A DNA stretch of 11,169 bases, taken from assembly GCA_031414955.1 (NCBI GenBank), contig JANOQV010000083.1, positions 1-11,169 on the forward strand. Direction: 5' to 3'. Below, one piece after another: positions 1 through 11,169 of this stretch; within the stretch, counting starts at the first letter, position 1; the number at the start of each line of letters is the position of its first letter. The stretch comes from Pedosphaera sp. (lineage in GTDB: Bacteria > Verrucomicrobiota > Verrucomicrobiia > Limisphaerales > SIBH01). Both the position numbers and the translations under genes were made by a program. Under the pieces are notes generated by a model. The model searched no databases, was not told the origin of the DNA, and saw only the letters and a list, made by a program, of their open reading frames with translations.

Positions 1-771
1 CTGCTCGTGGGCGGCATCGACAAGCTGTTCGAGATCGGGAAGAACTTCCGCAACGAAGGACTCTCGCGCCGGCACAATCCCGAGTTCACGATGCTGGAAG
101 CCTACTGCGCGTTCGGCGATTACGAGTCGATGATGGAGACGGTGGAGGCGTTGATAACCACCGTCGCGCAGAAGGTGCTGGGCGGCCTCGTCATCGAGAC
201 GAAGGATGCGGAAGGCCAAGTGATCAAGTCCATTGACCTCTCGCCGAAATGGAAGCGCGCCCGCTACAAAGACCTCGTGAAAGAGAAGGCTGGCACGGAC
301 TGGTTCAACATCTCTCCTGCCGAACGCCGCCAACGTGCCCACGATCTCGGCGCGGAGATTGGAAAAGAATACGAGGACTTTGAAGTGACGGGCGCGGTCT
401 TCGAGAAGCTGATTGAGCCAACGCTCATCCAACCAACCTTCGTGACTCACCTTCCCAAAGAACTCGTCCCGCTCGCCAAGCTCTCGCCTGACGACCCGAC
501 GACCGTGGAAGTGTTTGAGTGCTGCATCAACGGACAGGAAATCGCGCCGGGCTACACCGAACAAAACGACCCCATCGCGCAACGCAACACCTTGGAACAC
601 CAAGCGGGCGGCGAACAGCAAAAGCTCGATGAGGATTTCCTTGTGGCCCTTGAGCACGGGATGCCGCCAGCGGGAGGAATCGGGATTGGGATTGATCGCC
701 TGTGCATGATGTTGCTGGGGCAGGAGAGCATCAGGGACGTGATTCTGTTTCCACAGTTGAAACCGAAGTGA
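1..771 (+). CDS. lysS: Lysine--tRNA ligase (class II), 3' portion; starts upstream of window
   Basis: Motif 2 region [47 protein letters not shown], motif 3 [17 protein letters not shown] and the IRDVILFP terminus; TGA at 769-771. Confidence 0.98.
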
Positions 772-2753: not shown

Positions 2754-2960
2754 ATGAGTGCAGCAGAAGCCACGGCGGAAGTTTTCGTCACCGCGTTCAA
2801 GTCCTTGAAGCCGCGCCAGCGCGAGGCCGTGCTGGAACGGATGCTGGAAGACGAGGGTATTTCCGCTGACATCGCTGACACGCTGGCTTTGGAAGCGCGC
2901 CGCCATCAGCCGCGCCAGCCCTTCCGGCAGGTGCTGAAAGAACTCGGCATCAAGGCGTGA
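2754..2960 (+). CDS. Putative antitoxin of RelE/ParE toxin
   Basis: 68 aa upstream of the toxin with GTGA overlap; C-terminal PFRQVLKELGI typical of RelE partners. Confidence 0.8.
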   Translation: MSAAEATAEVFVTAFKSLKPRQREAVLERMLEDEGISADIADTLALEARRHQPRQPFRQVLKELGIKA

Positions 2961-3214
2961 ACTGGCAGATTGAAATCGCCCGCGATGCCCGCAAGGAACT
3001 CGCCAGCCTTCATTCGCAGATGCAGATTCGGATTTCCAAGGCCATCCTCGCGCTTGAGAACAACCCCTTCCCGAACGGCTGCAAAAAGCTTAAGAACCGC
3101 GACGGCTACCGTATTCGCGTCGGTGACTATCGGGTGCTGTATTTCATGGACACGAAATTGAAACGGATTGTCATCGGCAGCATCGGTCATCGCCGAGAAG
3201 TTTATCGCGACTGA
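2957..3214 (+). CDS. relE: RelE/ParE family toxin
   Basis: ARKELASL, LENNPFPNGCKKLK, YRIRVGDYRVLY, IGHRREVYR. Confidence 0.95.
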   Translation: MNWQIEIARDARKELASLHSQMQIRISKAILALENNPFPNGCKKLKNRDGYRIRVGDYRVLYFMDTKLKRIVIGSIGHRREVYRD

Positions 3215-3215
3215 C

Positions 3216-3341
3216 CGCCTCTACGGCGAAGGCCAAGAGAAGCTGCTGCGGGTGGTGGTTGAAGAAACGGAAGCTGAAATTGTGGCGGTGACGGTTTATC
3301 CTGTTTCGCAGGTCAAACGATATTGGAAGGAAGCACCATGA
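3216..3341 (+). pseudogene. 5'-truncated DUF4258-like toxin remnant
   Basis: Reads RLYGEGQEKLLRVVVEETEAEIVAVTVYPVSQVKRYWKEAP*; its TGA overlaps the DUF2283 ATG (ATGA); the N-terminal half is missing. Confidence 0.75.
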
Positions 3342-3553
3342 AGCTCACATACGACAAAGAGACCGACACGCTGTTGATTGTGCTGAAGAGCAGCGCGATC
3401 ACGGGGACCGAAGAGGTGCGCCCCGGCGTGCTGGCGGACTTGGATGAGAGCGGCGCGTTGGTGAGCATGGAAGTCCTCAATGCCTCTCGCAAAGTGGAGA
3501 CCTTGAACGATTTGCTCGCGAGCCACTTGCCGGTTGAATTGGAAGTGGCGTGA
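3338..3553 (+). CDS. DUF2283 family protein (putative antitoxin)
   Basis: MKLTYDKETDTLLI...EEVRPGVLADLDESGALVSMEVLNAS signature. Confidence 0.88.
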   Translation: MKLTYDKETDTLLIVLKSSAITGTEEVRPGVLADLDESGALVSMEVLNASRKVETLNDLLASHLPVELEVA

Positions 3554-3563
3554 CCAGCCCGTA

Positions 3564-3789
3564 GCCGAAGGAACTCGTGCCGCTGGCCAAGCTCTCGCCC
3601 GACGACCCGGCCACGGTGGAAGTCTTCGAGTGCTGCATCAACGGGCAGGAGATTGCGCCCGGCTACACCGAGCAGAATGATCCCATCGCGCCGCGCCACA
3701 CGCTGGAGCACCAGGCCGGCGGCGAGCAGCAGAAGCCAGATTTCCTCGTCGCCCTCGAACACGGCCTGCCCCCAGCGGGCGGCCTCGGC
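3564..3789 (+). pseudogene. lysS: lysS 3'-region copy L3 (matches lysS ~453..686), truncated by fusion to thrS copy
   Basis: [14 protein letters not shown]...LPPAGGLG; shares APRHT, KPDF and LPPAGGL changes with L2. Confidence 0.93.
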
Positions 3790-4200
3790 TTCGCGCCGGT
3801 CGGGCCGCCGTGGTGGAGACGCACCCTCACCGCGCGGGCTTCCATGTCGCGACCGCCGATGACGTCGTAACGCAGATTGGCAATCTGCCGTATCGCCGAC
3901 TGGCAGTCGGCAGGGCGTCGCCAGACAGAACGCGCAAAAAATATCCCACGACCTCCGGCGCAGCACCGCCCCGCAGATTGGCAATCTGCGACACGGCAGA
4001 CTGCCAGTCTGCGCTACTGCGTTGGAAATCATCGCCCCCGCTCGCGATTTATAGGAGTTGAACGGCGTCGCGCTGAAATCCGCATCCACGCGCACCATGT
4101 TCGCGCGCAGTTCGGCCACGATGAACTGGGCGTAGTTGATCAACGCTTCGTCGTCGTTGAGCGTGATCACGCGCACCTGATCCGGCGCGAGCCAGAGCGG
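3785..4200 (-). pseudogene. thrS: thrS 3'-region copy T1 (matches thrS ~10426..10694), interrupted by REP doublet and 21-nt insertion
   Basis: PLWLAPDQVRVITLNDDEALINYA...DFSATPF, then ISNA and AVRVRLHHGGP.GAKP; insertion at 4037-4057. Confidence 0.92.
3867..4017. repeat. REP doublet (REPIN-like), GTAG type
   Basis: Left arm GTAACGCAGATTGGCAATCTGCCGTATCGCCGACTGGCAGTCGGC (3867-3911) and inverted right arm ending GCAGACTGCCAGTCTGCGCTAC (3972-4017); each arm has two hairpins. Confidence 0.85.
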
Positions 4201-4331
4201 CCATCTTGGCCCTGTTGAGAGTTGCTCAAAAGTTGGCTTCCTCACGAGTTGACTTGCCAACTTGACCTTGGAGACAAAAGAATGGATTATTGGCGAATGA
4301 ACTGCGAGAAATTAAAATCAGGAGCATTGTT

Positions 4332-5381
4332 ATGAATGTGATTCTTACACACAAGCTGCGCCGACTTGGGATAACTGTCTTGCTCGTGTGGGCAACTGTT
4401 TATCCGTTAACCAGTCGGGGTGAAATTTATACGACAGTGGATAATCGCGGTCACTGTCAGCACGACTACGCCGCATCAGCTAACCCATTTACATGGACTA
4501 CCGAGAGTATAGCGCCATACCACGGACCAAGAAGCGACGGCTGGAATGTCTATACTGTAGATTACAATCTTATAGGTAATGGTCTTTTTGGTGGCATTCA
4601 ACTTTGCTCGGAGTCTGTCACGATCATTTGGCGAAATAATCCAAGGCAAAACCACGAACGAGTTGACCGGATTAAAAGGAAAATAACCATACAAAACTTG
4701 TTCAACAAATACGACCCCAACAGCGACGAATACCAATACAGATACAGACCGAGACCGCAGCCTAAGGAAAATAAAAACTTGTTTAGAATAAAAACCCCTT
4801 CGGCGGTGGTGGGGACTCGATGTTCACTAGACAAGAAGTTCATCGGTATTGACCTGATTGAAGCTTCACCGGATGGGGCACTGCTTGATTTCACGCTCAC
4901 CCAATCGAATATCCTCGCAGGCGAGGTTATTCACATGATGATCGAAGCTAAAGGCGATGAAGATTGGATTGAGTTGGCAGCCAACGGAACGAACTTTATG
5001 TGTCTCCCACTCGCCGATTTTGACGTGGGCGAGTATTATGAAATTGACGTGCCGTCCGAGTTGCTGGTGGTGGGAAAAAACACTTACAGCTATTTCCTGA
5101 ACAGCACCGGCGCGGTAAACTCAACCATCTTCTTCCCGCTCGGCGTGCCGGCGGATGAGCCTCCAACCATTGGCGCATTTACCATCACGAACTCAAACTT
5201 TGCCCTGCAACTGACCAACTTGGTGTATGGCCTCGACTATGCCATCGAGCAGTCCGTCGCGCTCGCAACCACCAACTGGCAGTCGGTGGCAACCTTTACC
5301 GCAACCAATGATTTTCACTCCCTCAGCGTGCCGATGACAAATGCGGCAATGTTCTATCGCGCCGCAATTTCACCGCCGTAG
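4332..5381 (+). CDS. Putative secreted protein with C-terminal Verrucomicrobia-type beta domain
   Basis: AGGAG at 4320-4324 before ATG 4332; signal peptide (KLRRLGITVLLVWATVYP); C-terminal YAIEQSVALATTNWQSV...MFYRA motif; AT-rich N-terminal half. Confidence 0.75.
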   Translation: MNVILTHKLRRLGITVLLVWATVYPLTSRGEIYTTVDNRGHCQHDYAASANPFTWTTESIAPYHGPRSDGWNVYTVDYNLIGNGLFGGIQLCSESVTIIWRNNPRQNHERVDRIKRKITIQNLFNKYDPNSDEYQYRYRPRPQPKENKNLFRIKTPSAVVGTRCSLDKKFIGIDLIEASPDGALLDFTLTQSNILAGEVIHMMIEAKGDEDWIELAANGTNFMCLPLADFDVGEYYEIDVPSELLVVGKNTYSYFLNSTGAVNSTIFFPLGVPADEPPTIGAFTITNSNFALQLTNLVYGLDYAIEQSVALATTNWQSVATFTATNDFHSLSVPMTNAAMFYRAAISPP

Positions 5382-5404: not shown

Positions 5405-5509
5405 TCACGCCCTTCTCTCCCAAATACTCGCCAAAATATCCGCCACGACCTCCGCCTTCGGCTTCGCGCCTTGCGGGCCGCCGTGGTGGAGACGCACGCT
5501 CACCGCGCC
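5405..5509 (-). pseudogene. thrS: thrS extreme 3'-end copy T2 (matches ~10374..10478, includes stop)
   Basis: GAVSVRLHHGGPQGAKPKAEVVADILA...RRA* alignable to the thrS end. Confidence 0.9.
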
Positions 5510-5511
5510 AT

Positions 5512-5820
5512 TCATACAAAGAAGCCTCCGAAGACCGGCGGTATTTCCCGAGCCACGCAACGCAGGCTGGTCTGGCGCTGGCGCAAGGCGGCATCCAGCC
5601 GTTCCGCCGGCTCTTCCGAGACGAGGACTTCCTCAATCAATTCGCGGTGCGCTTGAAAGCGTTCACGATACGGATGGCGCTGATCCATCCAATGGGCCAG
5701 AAGACGGGCGCGCATCTCCGGCAAACGCCACATGCGGCGTCCGTAAACAAAACGGGCCACGTCATCCCAATTCGGGTAGTCGCCCCAGACACTTCGGACG
5801 TTTTCTGTGTTTGTCTGCAT
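5512..5820 (-). CDS. Hypothetical protein (102 aa)
   Basis: MQTNTENVRSVWGDYPNWDDVARF...IPPVFGGFFV; protein-like composition, upstream promoter match; no family recognised. Confidence 0.7.
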   Translation of the reverse strand: MQTNTENVRSVWGDYPNWDDVARFVYGRRMWRLPEMRARLLAHWMDQRHPYRERFQAHRELIEEVLVSEEPAERLDAALRQRQTSLRCVAREIPPVFGGFFV

Positions 5821-5827
5821 GATCCCC

Positions 5828-5856
5828 ACTATGGCAGAGCGAGGCGCTCGGCCCAA
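5828..5856 (-). promoter_or_regulatory. Putative sigma70 promoter, leaderless start
   Basis: Minus strand TTGGGC, 17 nt spacer, CATAGT, then 7 nt to ATG at 5820. Confidence 0.45.
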
Positions 5857-5951
5857 GCGGCATGTGCGCGATCCCTTGGCTCGTTTCGCTTGCGCTTGGG
5901 CACCAGCAGATCCGCCACTGCGGGGACAACCACGAGCAGGTGGCCATACTG

Positions 5952-6503
5952 CTTGCGGACCGACGTGGTGCAGACGCACGCTCACCGCGTCGGCTTCCGT
6001 GTCACGACCGCCGATGACGACTGTAGCCGACGACGTGAGGAGGCGGGAAGCTTCCTGAACGTTCCGCGTTGGCACTCTCCGCCTTGAACGGCGTCGCGCT
6101 GTAATCGGCATCCACTCGCACCATGTTCGCGCGCAGTTCGGCCACGACGGGCTTGGCGTAGTTGATCAACGCCTCGTCGTCGTTGAGCGTGATGACGAGC
6201 ACCTGATCCGGCGCGAGCCAGAGCGGGAAGTTGCCCGCGTAATGCTCGATGAGGAAACCGATGAACCGCTCGTGCGTGCCGAGCGGCGCGCGATGGATGC
6301 ACAACGGCGTCTTGTTCGTGTTGTCTTTGTCGCGGTAGGTCAGGCCGAACTTGGCGGGAACGGCGAAGTCCACCTGGTTGGTGGCGATGGTGAATTCGCG
6401 GCCGATGGCGCTCCACACCTGCACGTCAATCTTCGGCCCGTAGAACGCCGCCTCGTTGGCCACCTCCACATAGTTGATGCCCGATTCGATCAACACCTGG
6501 CGC
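5952..6503 (-). pseudogene. thrS: thrS 3'-region copy T3 (matches ~10439..10971)
   Basis: RQVLIESGINYVEVANEAAFYGPKIDVQ...IHRAPLGTHERFIGFLIEHYAGNFPLWLAP...SNAE; 6019-6060 replaces thrS 10506-10528. Confidence 0.95.
6023..6046 (+). repeat. Single GTAG-type REP-like element
   Basis: GTAGCCGACGACGTGAGGAGGCGG, an imperfect palindrome headed by GTAG, inside non-thrS sequence. Confidence 0.6.
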
Positions 6504-6584
6504 GTCTGGTGACAACGTGGTTCAACTTGGGCAAAACTTTTCAAATTCAACTCGCGTAAAAAGTTTCTGCGAACTCCGCTCAAA

Positions 6585-7709
6585 TCAATCTGCACTCTCG
6601 GCCGCTTGGCGCAATGCAAGGAACGCTTCCTTCAACGCCTGACTGACCGCGCTGTCCGCTTCTTGAAGAACAAGAACTTGGTATTGGTCGAGAAAATCCT
6701 TCCGCAGACGATGAAACAGATGCAGGAAGTGCCGCAGGAATCCGATGCAATCCAGAATCGCGATTTCAACGCCACCCGTTTCGTCATACTTCGAGCGGGC
6801 ATATTCGCGGATGTCGTCTGCGACCGACTCGGTTGAAATGAAGATGTAGTTTTGAACGTGCTTTCCTTGGGCGGCAATTTTCTGGAGCGCACGGTCAATG
6901 TCGCTACGCTGCACCGCCTTGTTCTTCATCTCATAGCTCGTCACCACTTTGTCCTCGCCGAGCAGCGTGATTTGAACGTCGCCCACCGCTCCGGTCTGTT
7001 CATCGGCGGCGTTGTGAGCGGTGAGATTGAGCACACGCTCGCCGAGTCGCGTTTTTGCCGATTCGTAAGCGGCAGCAACAATCAAGACCAGCAGACGACT
7101 CGAACCTTTGCAGCGCAGATGCTGCTCAATCAGATTCACAGTGTCTTCGGATGAGAGCGGAAGCGCACCAACGACACGACCGACGCCCGAGAGCAAAGTC
7201 TTCAGTCGAACTTTCCGCGCATCACGTTCGAGCAGCAACAATCGAATGGACTCATCCAAGACATCCTTGGCCGAGACTCGACCAGCCCGCACATCGTCCA
7301 AAAGCTCCAAAGCATCGTGATACATCACCATCGGACGCCCCACCAAAACAACTTTGATTGTCAGCGTTTGGTCCATGTTCCGCAGCGTCGGCGTGAGAAA
7401 CGCGGTGGTGGAATTGCAGGGAAGATTGTGGCGCGTGATGAAGTCGCCGATGAATTGCTCGTCGTAACTGCGGCCAGAGAAACAATCCTTGCTACCAATT
7501 TTCGTGTAGGGCTTGCGTGGGTCAATTTCCGGGCGATGTGCTTTCGCCAACATACAAGCCAAGATTAGCCGCACGCCCGCGCGATTACTCGGACAGTTGA
7601 CGACCGAAACGACACGCGCGGCGATTTCCTCGTCGTGAATAAACGAATGGCCGAGATTCTTTTGAGCGCGCTTTAGCGCAGCCTCAAGCAGTGGCGAACA
7701 GTTCTCCAT
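6585..7709 (-). CDS. Type II restriction endonuclease, probably SacI-like
   Basis: Downstream of and overlapping the MTase; AADEQTGAVGDVQI...SYEMK PD-(D/E)xK motif; NRAGVRLILACMLAK and GRSYDE N-terminal motifs; likely start ATG 7709. Confidence 0.75.
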   Translation of the reverse strand: MENCSPLLEAALKRAQKNLGHSFIHDEEIAARVVSVVNCPSNRAGVRLILACMLAKAHRPEIDPRKPYTKIGSKDCFSGRSYDEQFIGDFITRHNLPCNSTTAFLTPTLRNMDQTLTIKVVLVGRPMVMYHDALELLDDVRAGRVSAKDVLDESIRLLLLERDARKVRLKTLLSGVGRVVGALPLSSEDTVNLIEQHLRCKGSSRLLVLIVAAAYESAKTRLGERVLNLTAHNAADEQTGAVGDVQITLLGEDKVVTSYEMKNKAVQRSDIDRALQKIAAQGKHVQNYIFISTESVADDIREYARSKYDETGGVEIAILDCIGFLRHFLHLFHRLRKDFLDQYQVLVLQEADSAVSQALKEAFLALRQAAESAD

Positions 7710-8709
7710 GGGATTTGCCGTTGCGTTTGATTTTTTGTGGGTTGTAATTTGTCCAGAGAATCTCCACGCGCTTGTCTTTCGTCGAATGGTTCGTGCGTTC
7801 TGGTGAAACCGTCTTGTGCCATTTCGGAGCAGGATAAAGCTGGTCAAGGATTCCAGCCTGATAATTCGAGAAAGCCACCATGCCTTGAACCGCGTTAAGA
7901 ACTTCCGCGAGTTCCTTGTGCTGCGCGTCGGTCATTTCAAATCCGTAAGCCTTCGAGTCGCCGCGCGTCGAGTGGACATAAGGCGGGTCGCAGTAAAATA
8001 GCGTGACCGGTGAATCGTAGAGGCGAATGATATTCGCAGCGGGACGGTTTTCGATTTGAACGCGGAGCAACCGTTCCGCCACCGCAGGCAAATCTTTTAC
8101 TGATCCAAGCCACCGGCTGATGACACCGCTCATGCCGGCGCGGCTTGTGTTCTTACAGTTGGCCCAACGACCGATGGTAGCAGTCTGCGCCAGTCCCGTT
8201 CGGACTTGCCGGGCGCGAACAAAAAAACGGCGGGCACGCTCCAAAGCTGTCAAATCGGGGCTGACTTCACAGGCAATCGCAAATTCTTCGCGCGCGAACG
8301 GAGTCAAACCGATGGCCTCAATCAGCCGTTGCTTTTCCTCGCGGAGAACGCGGAAGAAATTTACCACTTCGCCGTCGAGATCGTTGAACGTTTCCACTGG
8401 CGACGGCTCGCGATTGAGCAGCACCGCACCCGACCCGGCGAACGGCTCGCAATAATGATGACAATCGGGAAGCAACGGCAGCAGCCAGTCGAGATGCGAG
8501 AACTTTCCGCCATACCAGCCGAACGGAATAAGTTTTTTTCTTTCCGTGAGACGAGCGACAGGTGGCGGCACTGTCCGTCCGTGCCGCAAAACATCACCAT
8601 TGACGCGATACGGCGGCGCGTCTTCGCGCAAAACCATTGCCTCCGCCTTTTGCTTGGGGCGACTACGAGACGGGCGAACTTGCTTTCGCATTGTTGGAGT
8701 TTTTTTCAT
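7684..8709 (-). CDS. DNA adenine methyltransferase (Dam/D12 class)
   Basis: FGWYGGKFSHL, YCEPFAGSGAV (motif I), NDLDGEVVNFF, FYCDPPY (motif IV), EILWTNY; start uncertain. Confidence 0.95.
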   Translation of the reverse strand: MKKTPTMRKQVRPSRSRPKQKAEAMVLREDAPPYRVNGDVLRHGRTVPPPVARLTERKKLIPFGWYGGKFSHLDWLLPLLPDCHHYCEPFAGSGAVLLNREPSPVETFNDLDGEVVNFFRVLREEKQRLIEAIGLTPFAREEFAIACEVSPDLTALERARRFFVRARQVRTGLAQTATIGRWANCKNTSRAGMSGVISRWLGSVKDLPAVAERLLRVQIENRPAANIIRLYDSPVTLFYCDPPYVHSTRGDSKAYGFEMTDAQHKELAEVLNAVQGMVAFSNYQAGILDQLYPAPKWHKTVSPERTNHSTKDKRVEILWTNYNPQKIKRNGKSHGELFATA

Positions 8710-8710
8710 G

Positions 8711-9460
8711 TCACACTTCATCGGGCAAATCTTGGTCGGTTTTGCACTGGGGCGTGCGTTCGTGCCAAACTTTTTGCAGCAACTTTTCTTGCACATCCAT
8801 GACAAGTTCGAGTTCAAGGCCGATGTCCTGGTAATTTTGCACCAGAACCACACCGCCACGACTGGTTAGCATAACCGGATGCCGCACTCCGTTGTGCATC
8901 CACGGGATCGTAACGTTTGAAAGATCGGCAACCTGCTGCAAGTTCTTGAACAAGCTATCATCTTGAATTTGATTTCCCGACAGTCCCACCGATTGCACTC
9001 GGCTTGACGCGCCACGAAACCACGCTCCGAGATATTCGCTGTTTAATTTTAAGACCGCGCCGAAGTCGAGTTCGACCTCAATCAATTCGATGCCACAAAG
9101 TTTAGCTTTGAGAAGACCGAGAACGCCACTGCACACTTTTTTCGGCGCTTGAAAAATCATGAGATTGCGGCCTTTGTGAAAATATGCGGGGAAATCTACT
9201 GGTTGCAGGTATTCGATGAATTGAATTTTTTCACGCTTTGAGCCGACAAGCGTTTTGATAAAGCCGACTGTTTGATGGCGGATTTCACTCTTAATTCGTA
9301 AGAGGTCGAGATCACCCTCGTAATTTTCAGCCTCGACGGTGATTACTGTATCCACGTCTTCGTTTTCACCTGAAAACGTCATTTGCACTTGATTCCTCAG
9401 AGACTTCCCCACGGCAGGCTTCTGGAAATCCTTCACCAGATAGAATTGGAAAGGTTTCAT
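8711..9460 (-). CDS. Hypothetical protein (249 aa)
   Basis: Clean ORF, ATGA overlap with the upstream gene, abuts the MTase; low GC. Confidence 0.85.
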   Translation of the reverse strand: MKPFQFYLVKDFQKPAVGKSLRNQVQMTFSGENEDVDTVITVEAENYEGDLDLLRIKSEIRHQTVGFIKTLVGSKREKIQFIEYLQPVDFPAYFHKGRNLMIFQAPKKVCSGVLGLLKAKLCGIELIEVELDFGAVLKLNSEYLGAWFRGASSRVQSVGLSGNQIQDDSLFKNLQQVADLSNVTIPWMHNGVRHPVMLTSRGGVVLVQNYQDIGLELELVMDVQEKLLQKVWHERTPQCKTDQDLPDEV

Positions 9461-10248
9461 GTATTCCTTTCAACAGGCAGAGCTTTTAAGCTCACGACAG
9501 TCCTCAAAGCTTCAAAAAGGTCAGGCAGGTTTTGGCTTTCAATGTTGACGTGATTTTTCCCCGCCTCGACGCGGCACGACGAGTTGGCGTCCAGACGAAA
9601 AGTGACTTGAAAATTTTGAAGCATTTCAGGTTGCACCCGATTCACAAACAGCCCGTAGTAAGGATTTTTGTCCCGCTCGTCAAAGCTCACCACAAGCCCG
9701 CACTGCACCGCGTTTGGTTTGGCCAACCGTGCAACATTGTCGGCAAGACTCGCCAACCGTTTTCGGAAATGGTCGTAGAGATGCGAAGGCACAATCAGTT
9801 TTTGCTCGAAATCCATGTATAGACGCTGCTCGTCCAGGCGAAACCGAATGACGAAAAGCTCGTCGAGCGCAACGCTCAGAGTCGTCGGCGTCATTTCCCG
9901 GCGTTGAGGCACACCATGCTTGCCATCGGCAAGCATCTGCCAGATTTCGTCAAGAAGAGTTGCACGAACTGACCCAGAATCGAGTGTCATAGCGACGTGC
10001 GGTTGCCAATATGTGTGAGTGCGAGCGAGCCGCAGCCGTATTCGATTCACAAACAGATGAAACGCAAGATTCCGGTGATAGAGGAAATTCAAAGCAGTTG
10101 TGTAAACGGCAAAGGCGACGGAAAAAACCGACACAACACCGGGGTAGCGACTCTGCGAATGGAGGATCACATCATTAAGTGAAACGCCACCCCACAAAAG
10201 GAAGGCGATCACTGCGACGTGGGCGATGATGATCCAAAAGATTTTCAT
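9457..10248 (-). CDS. Hypothetical membrane protein with two N-terminal TM helices (263 aa)
   Basis: IFWIIIAHVAVIAFLLWGGV and VVSVFSVAFAVYTTALNFLY hydrophobic segments followed by a soluble domain. Confidence 0.85.
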   Translation of the reverse strand: MKIFWIIIAHVAVIAFLLWGGVSLNDVILHSQSRYPGVVSVFSVAFAVYTTALNFLYHRNLAFHLFVNRIRLRLARTHTYWQPHVAMTLDSGSVRATLLDEIWQMLADGKHGVPQRREMTPTTLSVALDELFVIRFRLDEQRLYMDFEQKLIVPSHLYDHFRKRLASLADNVARLAKPNAVQCGLVVSFDERDKNPYYGLFVNRVQPEMLQNFQVTFRLDANSSCRVEAGKNHVNIESQNLPDLFEALRTVVSLKALPVERNT

Positions 10249-10373: not shown

Positions 10374-11168
10374 TCACGCCCGCCGCTCTTTGATGCCCGC
10401 CAGAATATCCGCCACGACCTCCCCCTTCGGCTTCGCGCCTTGCGGGCCGCCGTGATGGAGTCGCACGCTCACCGCGCCGGCTTCCATGTCGCGCCCGCCG
10501 ATGACCAGCATCGTGTGGACGCGCAATTGTTCCGCGTTGGAAATCTTCGCCTTGAACGGCGTGGCGCTGAAATCCGAGTCCACGCGCACCATGTTCGCGC
10601 GCAGTTCGGCCACGATGGGCTTGGCGTAGTTGATCAACGCTTCGTCGTCGTTGAGCGTGATGACGCGCACCTGATCCGGCGCGAGCCAGAGCGGGAAGTT
10701 GCCCGCGTAATGCTCGATGAGAAAGCCGATGAACCGCTCGTGCGTGCCGAGCGGCGCGCGATGGATGCACAACGGCGTCTTGTTCGAGTTGTCCTTGTCG
10801 CGGTAGGTCAGGCCGAACTTGGCGGGCACGGCGAAGTCCACCTGGTTCGTGGCGATGGTGAACTCGCGCCCGATGGCGCTCCACACCTGGACGTCAATCT
10901 TCGGCCCGTAAAACGCCGCCTCGTTGGCGACCTCCACGTAGTTGATGCCCGATTCGATCAACACCTTGCGCACCATGTCCTCGGTTTTCTTCCACAACTC
11001 CGGTTCGTTGACGTATTTCTTGCCAAGTCCTTCCGCCGCGTGCGTGCTGAAGCGCATCTGATATTTTTCCAGGCCGAAGATTTTGAAATACTTCAGATAC
11101 ATGTCGTTCACGGCGCGGAACTCGTCGGCGAACTGCTCCTCGGTGCAATAGATGTGGGCGTCGTTCAT
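10374..11168 (-). CDS. thrS: Threonine--tRNA ligase, 3' portion; starts beyond window
   Basis: MNDAHIYC, EAAFYGPKID, IHRAPLGTHERFIGFLIEHYAGNFPLWLAP, anticodon-binding domain. Confidence 0.98.
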   Translation of the reverse strand: MNDAHIYCTEEQFADEFRAVNDMYLKYFKIFGLEKYQMRFSTHAAEGLGKKYVNEPELWKKTEDMVRKVLIESGINYVEVANEAAFYGPKIDVQVWSAIGREFTIATNQVDFAVPAKFGLTYRDKDNSNKTPLCIHRAPLGTHERFIGFLIEHYAGNFPLWLAPDQVRVITLNDDEALINYAKPIVAELRANMVRVDSDFSATPFKAKISNAEQLRVHTMLVIGGRDMEAGAVSVRLHHGGPQGAKPKGEVVADILAGIKERRA

Positions 11169-11169
11169 G

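Follow-up and report, generated by a model that had tools for sequence, protein, structure and literature searches.

At icd of E. coli, the integrase-encoding prophage 21 carries a synonymously different icd end. Four further systems resemble the locus described here. In the same E. coli gene, e14 brings a functional 3' end of its own that differs synonymously, leaving the resident one as the icdC pseudogene (PMC13626634). In Torulaspora and Lachancea yeasts, the WHO homing elements at FBA1 replace the 3' end of an essential gene, with old ends of ~400 bp lying between the downstream cassettes (PMC7282813; bioRxiv 10.64898/2026.08.13.744650). Sequential displacement via homology-facilitated illegitimate recombination has been proposed for T6SS effector-immunity modules and for the orphan tips of Rhs/CDI proteins (PMC5361080), and streptococcal ICEs integrate in the 3' end of lysS with tyrosine integrases and 13-17 bp direct repeats (PMC4701971). 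In the literature searched, which covered few subscription papers, we found no published account of the lysS system below.

The WHO elements and lysS are alike in the replacement of a 3' end, the displaced ends downstream, a downstream fragment that can act as homology arm, discordant 5' and 3' trees, tail alleles that are ~85% identical, and a newest unit (likely so in lysS) nearest the gene. WHO units, however, encode a LAGLIDADG/intein-zinc-finger endonuclease, of which we found no Pfam match among 15 window and 17 cargo proteins, and their fragments start at one cleavage position, whereas the starts of the first lysS arms range from nt 382 to 732 in two broad clusters; lysS also differs in being bacterial, in its arbitrary cargo with no shared endonuclease, and in a purely silent change. 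With e14, lysS shares a synonymously divergent functional tail and a resident pseudogene tail, but e14 is an integrase-encoding prophage with a fixed att site, while the lysS inserts are single genes with variable junctions and no integrase was found. The T6SS and Rhs arrays have in common with lysS a one-sided homology anchor, displaced old ends, growth of the array at its proximal side and later ordinary recombination; their swapped tips, though, encode different proteins, whereas the protein of the essential housekeeping gene lysS is conserved. The streptococcal ICEs share the target gene, but the lysS arms here measure 230-370 bp and no integrase was found. The layout is known from WHO and e14; at lysS we found neither their enzymes nor their fixed site.

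The window, by which we mean the whole stretch of 11,169 nt that was analyzed, is an entire contig (G000:C83) of a 6.5-Mb genome with 62% GC. The 3' parts of lysS (1-771, + strand) and thrS (10374-11169, - strand) point towards each other, each trailed by broken copies of its own tail, with toxin-antitoxin, restriction-modification and unknown genes interleaved. The contig begins within lysS and retains 256 codons of a class II LysRS (Pfam tRNA-synt_2, E 1.6e-56; 98% amino-acid identity to relative G013), divided into a resident-type 5' part with a loop at ~184-249 (1-270) and a silently rewritten tail (271-768). It is followed on the + strand by a cargo gene for 193 amino acids with a GC content of 0.50 (786-1367), whose last codons and stop lie within L1; by L1 itself (1334-1704), a dead resident-type tail corresponding to lysS nt ~394-771 that lacks 6 nt and carries a 1-nt frameshift; by an antitoxin and PIN (VapC-type) toxin cassette (1744-2387; PF01850); by the dead resident-type tail L2 (2394-2710; nt ~444-771); by an antitoxin and ParE/RelE-type toxin cassette (2754-3214; PF05016); by a truncated small gene and a DUF2283 gene (3215-3553; PF10049), with a stretch 93% identical in the lysS array of G001; and by a third dead resident-type tail, L3 (3564-3793; nt ~453-688), fused to an inverted thrS tail. 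The active thrS, which is unrewritten (99% amino-acid identity to G009), serves as an internal control; dead thrS tails lie at about 5938-6508, 5405-5512 and 3783-4206. Because we found neither another class II lysS nor a class I LysRS in the assembly, which is 95.9% complete, the lysS of the window is likely the working gene.

In the active lysS, the final ~500 bases belong to a silently rewritten allele, which makes the gene a chimera. A preliminary description of this DNA had proposed, from the codons for GGIGIGIDR, that the active tail was recoded or replaced with its protein nearly unchanged, and had predicted a GC3 step along the gene. Both proposals hold: the quoted codons are present in the active lysS and in L1, 56 codons of the active tail are identical to those of L1, 59 are synonymous and three non-synonymous (GC3 0.71 vs 0.89; for L3, 37 identical, 31 silent and five other), and along the active gene GC3s falls from 59/65 (0.91) before nt 205 to 129/183 (0.70) after it (permutation p 0.018), with GC3 values of 0.87 for thrS and 0.89 for L1. 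The proposed tail boundary at 230 needs correction. GC3 does fall at ~205-230, but this step is in part intrinsic to lysS, because unrewritten relatives also have values of 0.67-0.76 at codons 84-130; the breakpoint against G013, the closest relative in the 5' part and loop, lies at nt ~271 (interval 259-283), with eight of 83 codons differing before it, all silently, and 69 of 160 after it. Such estimates were left out for G007 and several loci of clade R2 (see below), where they are shifted by insertions. The rewritten tract begins ~120 nt upstream of the arm, and 16 of 44 codons differ there.

To place this divergence we searched 41 genomes for lysS relatives and retrieved 20 stretches; eight relatives (G002, G004, G006, G009, G010, G013, G015 and G030) were grouped post hoc by their distances. 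Their tails differ from one another at 7-23% of codons; the window tail differs from them at 42-52%, with just 2-6 amino-acid differences in 173 codons, and over the first 61 codons the window lysS differs from the six comparable relatives at 11-16%. Against the consensus of the eight, 63 of 122 codons within codons 132-256 differ with no amino-acid change, and shuffling the tail codons among positions with the same residue gives an expectation of 62.7 differences. The tail is fully randomized at silent sites, without anti-correlation to resident codons; active avoidance of resident codons was rejected, there being no excess over that expectation (56 are expected under genome usage). The tail GC3 of 0.72 is not extreme for a genome with a median of 0.80 over 3147 genes, 13% of which lie at or below 0.717, and its codon use is inside the normal range of the genome (CAI 0.64). 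It is the silent divergence with an unchanged protein, rather than the GC3 value, that is extreme. In 25 loci that lack an arm and show at least 30% silent difference, there are 134 amino-acid changes per 1105 silent ones; compared with these, the excess of silent over amino-acid change has a p value of 0.002 in G000, and of 0.11 and 0.16 in G007 and G003, which are not significant singly.

Trees place the active tail apart from the rest of its gene. In a tail tree of 71 rows, for which the bootstrap was not fully settled, the tails of G000, G003 and G007 form a clade, R1 (support 100/96), separate from their own dead tails, and L1 pairs with the dead tail of G007 (98/90). In a further pair of trees of 21 rows, the tail tree supports R1 at 100/99, the 5' tree rejects it (p-AU 1.8e-7) and pairs G003 with G009, and the grouping of G000, G013 and L089 is rejected in the tail (AU p 0.015); since R1 was defined after the distances had been seen, these AU tests are descriptive. 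The incongruence agrees with the proposal that the functional 3' end had been replaced. Any two R1 tails have 24-36 derived codons in common and differ at 37-43% of their codons, which points to an old and patchy lineage. Six metagenome loci form a second rewritten clade, R2 (100/99 in the 71-row tree), independent of R1, with arms beginning at nt 382-439. R1 is nested within the resident clade on long branches, and its tail looks like a fast sub-lineage of that clade rather than the product of a distant low-GC donor, as had been suggested at first: we found no low-GC full-length donor among 401 genomes, and no full-length R1 gene either there (best DNA match 86%) or among 80 metagenome loci. 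Nor does the tail belong to the adjacent low-GC ORF with which it was thought to have arrived, since G000 and its congeners G003 and G007 bear cargo genes unrelated to one another behind their R1 tails, and behind each of the three lies a long resident-type arm that is 94-96% identical to the consensus of the relatives and 79-86% identical to its own active tail. The lysS tails of G015, G018 and G030, which carry other family codes, are nearly identical to those of the genus at the protein level, suggesting that lysS has been exchanged across families.

The dead copies had been described as carrying host-like codons, and they do: L1 is 91-94% identical to the active tails of relatives and 79% identical to that of its own genome, L2 has 89 identical, seven silent and seven other codons relative to the consensus of the relatives (52/43/6 relative to the active tail), and L1-L3 group with the active tails of relatives, as expected if they are of resident type. 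Downstream of L1 is the VapBC cassette, and a 79% identical cassette lies directly behind the active lysS in G087; the RelBE-like cassette after L2 lies directly behind the active gene in G015, G030, G164, L119 and L158. L1 and L2 thus probably end where active genes once ended, and because their cassettes directly follow active lysS elsewhere, the gene-proximal cassette is likely the newest, in agreement with the order first proposed. The accompanying claim, that resident tails were displaced downstream, fits their resident type but not in its simplest form: a 6-nt deletion is common to L1-L3 and the arm of G007, so it would be too simple to see in L1-L3 three formerly active tails of independent origin. 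A donor-inherited arm or conversion among arms may account for the shared deletion, as may, for L2 and L3, assembly collapse. The dead tail of G018 was considered as a displaced rewritten tail and rejected; it is a decayed resident type (65/16/15).

The cargo gene had been assigned a GTG start at 768 that overlaps the lysS stop. Its 37 homologues (38 matches in all, including itself) begin at a Met matching the ATG at 786 and stop near residue 182 of the window ORF; because of this, the start is probably at 786 and the overlap probably not real. The protein matched nothing in Pfam or PADLOC, and its structure model (pLDDT 91) gave no Foldseek match at E<=0.001. All top 17 VIA-align rows are DNA glycosylases, the best with a modest Z of 6.7 and an rmsd of 4.8 over 158 residues; an Atlas cluster with 14% OGG members scored 0.92; and D116 is invariant in the family alignment, the HhH-GPD fold having a catalytic Asp. 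As a lead only, this predicted HhH DNA-glycosylase-like fold could serve in base excision or defence. Among the 34 homologue tails checked, P0006 (p 0/200) and P0007 (p 0.01) end in out-of-frame lysS from nt ~666, which, at the level of protein sequence alone, suggests that members of this family recur as lysS cassettes whose arms vary in length; low-p read-through in P0030 and P0022 involved short matches and was regarded as chance. The search of 401 genomes for the cargo returned one distant homologue (G147, 39%), a GTDB-wide pattern scan one distant archaeal match, and viral contigs neither a lysS tail nor a cargo homologue; a donor with the same tail-plus-ORF junction, which the preliminary description had proposed to look for, was found in none of the three.

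Are rewritten tails tied to the dead copies behind them? We analyzed 109 loci, comprising 29 of 30 from the 401-genome search and the 80 metagenome loci, with L069 left out (its end is absent), which gave 104 distinct tails. By the start of the first dead tail, 18 were classed as long-arm (nt 500 or earlier), 18 as short-arm, 47 as arm-less and 21 as too short to class; L148 was reassigned by hand to the arm-less and L100 to the short-arm class. First-arm starts fall into two broad clusters, 382-495 and 636-732. The median shift in GC3 from 5' part to tail is -0.092 in long-arm, +0.011 in short-arm and +0.012 in arm-less loci, and among loci with data a drop of at least 0.10 occurs in 8/17, 0/15 and 4/42, respectively. 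The active copy lies below the dead copy in GC3 in 12 of 18 long-arm loci (above in five) and in four of 18 short-arm loci (above in eight). Rewritten tails are thus associated with long dead copies, although nine of the 18 long-arm loci come from two clades, so that kin are not independent and p values overstate the association. The same dependence among kin applies to the correlation, across the 18, between the GC3 of the last 60 codons and the GC of the cargo (rho 0.66). One cargo family, nucleoside-deoxyribosyltransferase/TIR-like, stands beside a resident tail with a short arm in G010 and L137 and beside a rewritten tail with a long arm in G007 and L090; therefore a low-GC neighbour alone does not reduce GC3. 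Long arms also occur with unrewritten tails, in G002 (9% silent), G179 (13%) and L083 (16%).

We lean towards the view that the tail arrived, together with the cargo and a dead arm, by homologous recombination that requires no integrase, and that it persists because its divergence blocks loop-out. The mobile unit would consist of the rewritten tail, the cargo gene and the dead resident-type arm and would enter by a double crossover, one on the left within the conserved body of lysS, before nt ~271, and one on the right within the dead arm; the recipient's old tail and cassettes would thereby be pushed downstream. A single-crossover circle model was also considered and fits poorly, as L1 is already of resident type where it begins, and the rewriting sets in upstream of it. 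New arm junctions would likely be formed by microhomology-mediated illegitimate joining; 8 bp match in register at 1314-1321, and short CCG-type matches occur at the junction of the ORF and L1. Each transfer would refresh the arm, which would then remain resident-like, while the active tail would be free to change silently only. Where a long arm faced a matching tail, the unit would be quickly deleted, so that the surviving long-arm units would mostly have diverged tails, and a tail that no longer took part in gene conversion with resident alleles would drift towards random codon use of lower GC3; selection would be required on whole units only, not per codon. RecA-dependent recombination in E. 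coli needs a perfect match of roughly 23-27 bp. The longest perfect match of the active tail to L1, L2 or L3 is 17 bp, compared with 50-110 bp between L1 and any of eight resident-type tails, so that we predict suppressed loop-out of the proximal cassette; other long-arm loci retain perfect matches of 19-44 bp. The genome contains comEC, a candidate sign of natural competence, and its eight integrase matches (PF00589) are all off the lysS contig, with none in the cargo scans.

Stabilization as the reason for which rewritten tails persist is our reading of these matches, and other repeats weigh against it. L1, L2 and L3 match one another over 46-71 bp, yet their cassettes are retained, and at thrS, asd and ppdK long arms differ silently at only 11-13%, so long repeats survive without rewriting, and stabilization does not explain why rewriting is restricted to lysS. 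Also counting against it are the long arms with unrewritten tails, the perfect matches of 19-44 bp at other long-arm loci, the start of the rewritten tract upstream of the arm, and a silent excess that is not significant in G007 or G003. More tentatively still, we propose that the order may carry natural 'recoded rescue' units: enzyme-free cassettes with long-lived, cross-species, silently rewritten lysS tails that would home by recombination alone and be locked in by rewriting. If so, they would amount to a WHO-like element without a nuclease and to gene capture at an essential gene by homologous recombination alone, with silent rewriting as the stabilizer, as in engineered recoded rescues and, with the help of enzymes, in WHO and e14. 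Trees and codon-bias measures that rest on lysS in this group are chimeric and call for caution. Whether recombination maintains bacterial GC3 via biased conversion or via more efficient selection is an open question (PMC11879095). The locus lends itself to a direct test, since one expressed gene occurs here with resident alleles (GC3 ~0.9) and with shielded ones (0.5-0.75). The units would then amount to a natural experiment, with an essential gene that loses its high GC3 when recombination is kept from it, while gene and host stay the same.

Plain transfer from a sister lineage of lower GC would need no such stabilization: the tail would be the normal allele of a relative missing from the sample, carried along with the cargo, and its divergence would have no function. 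The normal codon use of the tail would suit it, as would the correlation of cargo GC with adjacent GC3 in long-arm loci, and some arm-less loci do differ from the consensus at 30-45% of codons with 2-9 amino-acid changes. We nevertheless consider it unlikely: the genome and metagenome searches returned no full-length R1 gene, R1 is nested in the resident clade on long branches, silent saturation came with no amino-acid change at all in G000, and such a transfer gives no account of the missing GC3 drop in short-arm loci. A homing drive of the WHO kind, in which a nuclease, in the cargo or in trans, cuts the resident lysS and the rewritten tail is the resistant, rescuing allele, would explain why the layout is the same as at FBA1 and why arm starts cluster near nt 380-450 and 680-730; the DNA-acting fold predicted for the window cargo and the T5orf172 domain of one R2 cargo also point this way. 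It is improbable, however, because the cargo behind rewritten tails is unrelated and most of the 17 scanned lack a nuclease domain, the same cargo also occurs beside resident tails, and the rewriting covers 500 nt, with a local resistance hot spot that is not significant in G000 (p 0.17) and is present in one of 11 tails; amino-acid diversification of the kind reported for FBA1 is absent.

Nor do we give much credence to decayed elements of the e14 or phage 21 type, which would have supplied a replacement tail by site-specific insertion and later lost their integrase. In their favour, e14 leaves just such a pseudogene beside a synonymously different end, and streptococcal ICEs target this very 3' end; but none of the eight integrase matches in the genome is on the contig, the inserts are of 269-1647 bp with an integrase in none of the 17 scanned cargo proteins, arm starts vary over hundreds of bases (an older fixed site may have eroded), and the viral contigs carry neither tail nor cargo. 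An artefact in which the lysS genes of two organisms were merged is the hardest to credit, although the bin is 5.84% contaminated, the contig breaks within lysS, and the interiors of L1-L3 are collapsed repeats that no unique unitig pieces bridge. In two runs of one study, X1 and X2, which are possibly the source runs, single mismatch-free unitigs span 129-557, linking the 5' part to the tail, and 528-1393 or 618-1393, linking the tail via the ORF to L1, and the layout recurs in G003, G007 and six other loci; the lysS arrangement is not an assembly chimera. Run X2 also contains an R1-like end with a different neighbour, and runs of other studies contain R1-like pieces at 89-95% identity, one of which links an R1-like end (778) via different DNA to an arm (1345) that starts near nt 405.

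Integrase-free recombination with a stabilizing tail, the reading we prefer, can be set against other genes of the same genome. A scan of 4089 predicted genes found 64 with a downstream copy of their own end, many of them ordinary paralogues, and among 24 inspected the tail-cassette-tail layout occurs at genes that we take to be thrS, asd, ppdK, lepA and ispH, and at others. None of the 24 reaches the 51% silent difference of lysS with so few amino-acid changes; thrS and its first long dead tail, for example, have 138 identical, 21 silent and 17 other codons. Tail swapping is genome-wide, and rewriting is special to lysS in this genome. Further tail-cassette-tail loci at housekeeping genes lie on contigs C9, C65, C242, C280, C165, C244 and C257 of G000; at the ppdK-like locus on C9, a methyltransferase/ATPase pair and a toxin-antitoxin pair separate three tails.

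Several other features of the arrays were observed. The lysS loop (nt 184-249) bears unrelated in-frame insertions of ~15-125 residues in many relatives (L023, L024, L025, L026, L028 and L030). In L085, GC3 is 0.20 right after the loop insertion and back to 0.86 at the 3' end, with no arm within 2.9 kb downstream; this stretch is a second rewritten patch. At ~3780-3800 a short motif shared by L3 and a thrS tail joins the lysS array to the inverted thrS array; in relatives, lysS and thrS are found on different contigs. A palindromic REP-like doublet (3866-4020) lies inside a dead thrS tail, and low-complexity in-frame linkers resembling it occur in the N-terminal part of LysRS in L003, L004, L023 and L025. 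Between two thrS tails of the opposite strand, a low-GC ORF of 363 amino acids (4290-5381, + strand) without a Pfam or PADLOC match is probably secreted. The thrS cargo at 6585-10248 (- strand) comprises two unknown ORFs, a D12-type adenine methyltransferase and a SacI-like restriction enzyme whose gene runs into a dead thrS tail. The thrS tail and a homologue of the small gene at 5512-5850 (window 5405-5930) are repeated on a second contig (G000:C285:1-559), possibly a strain variant or another member of the array. Over this part, ThrRS in the congeners G010:C513 and G007:C235 is just 81-83% identical, with longer open frames, and in G009 99% identical; thrS alleles may have been swapped too.
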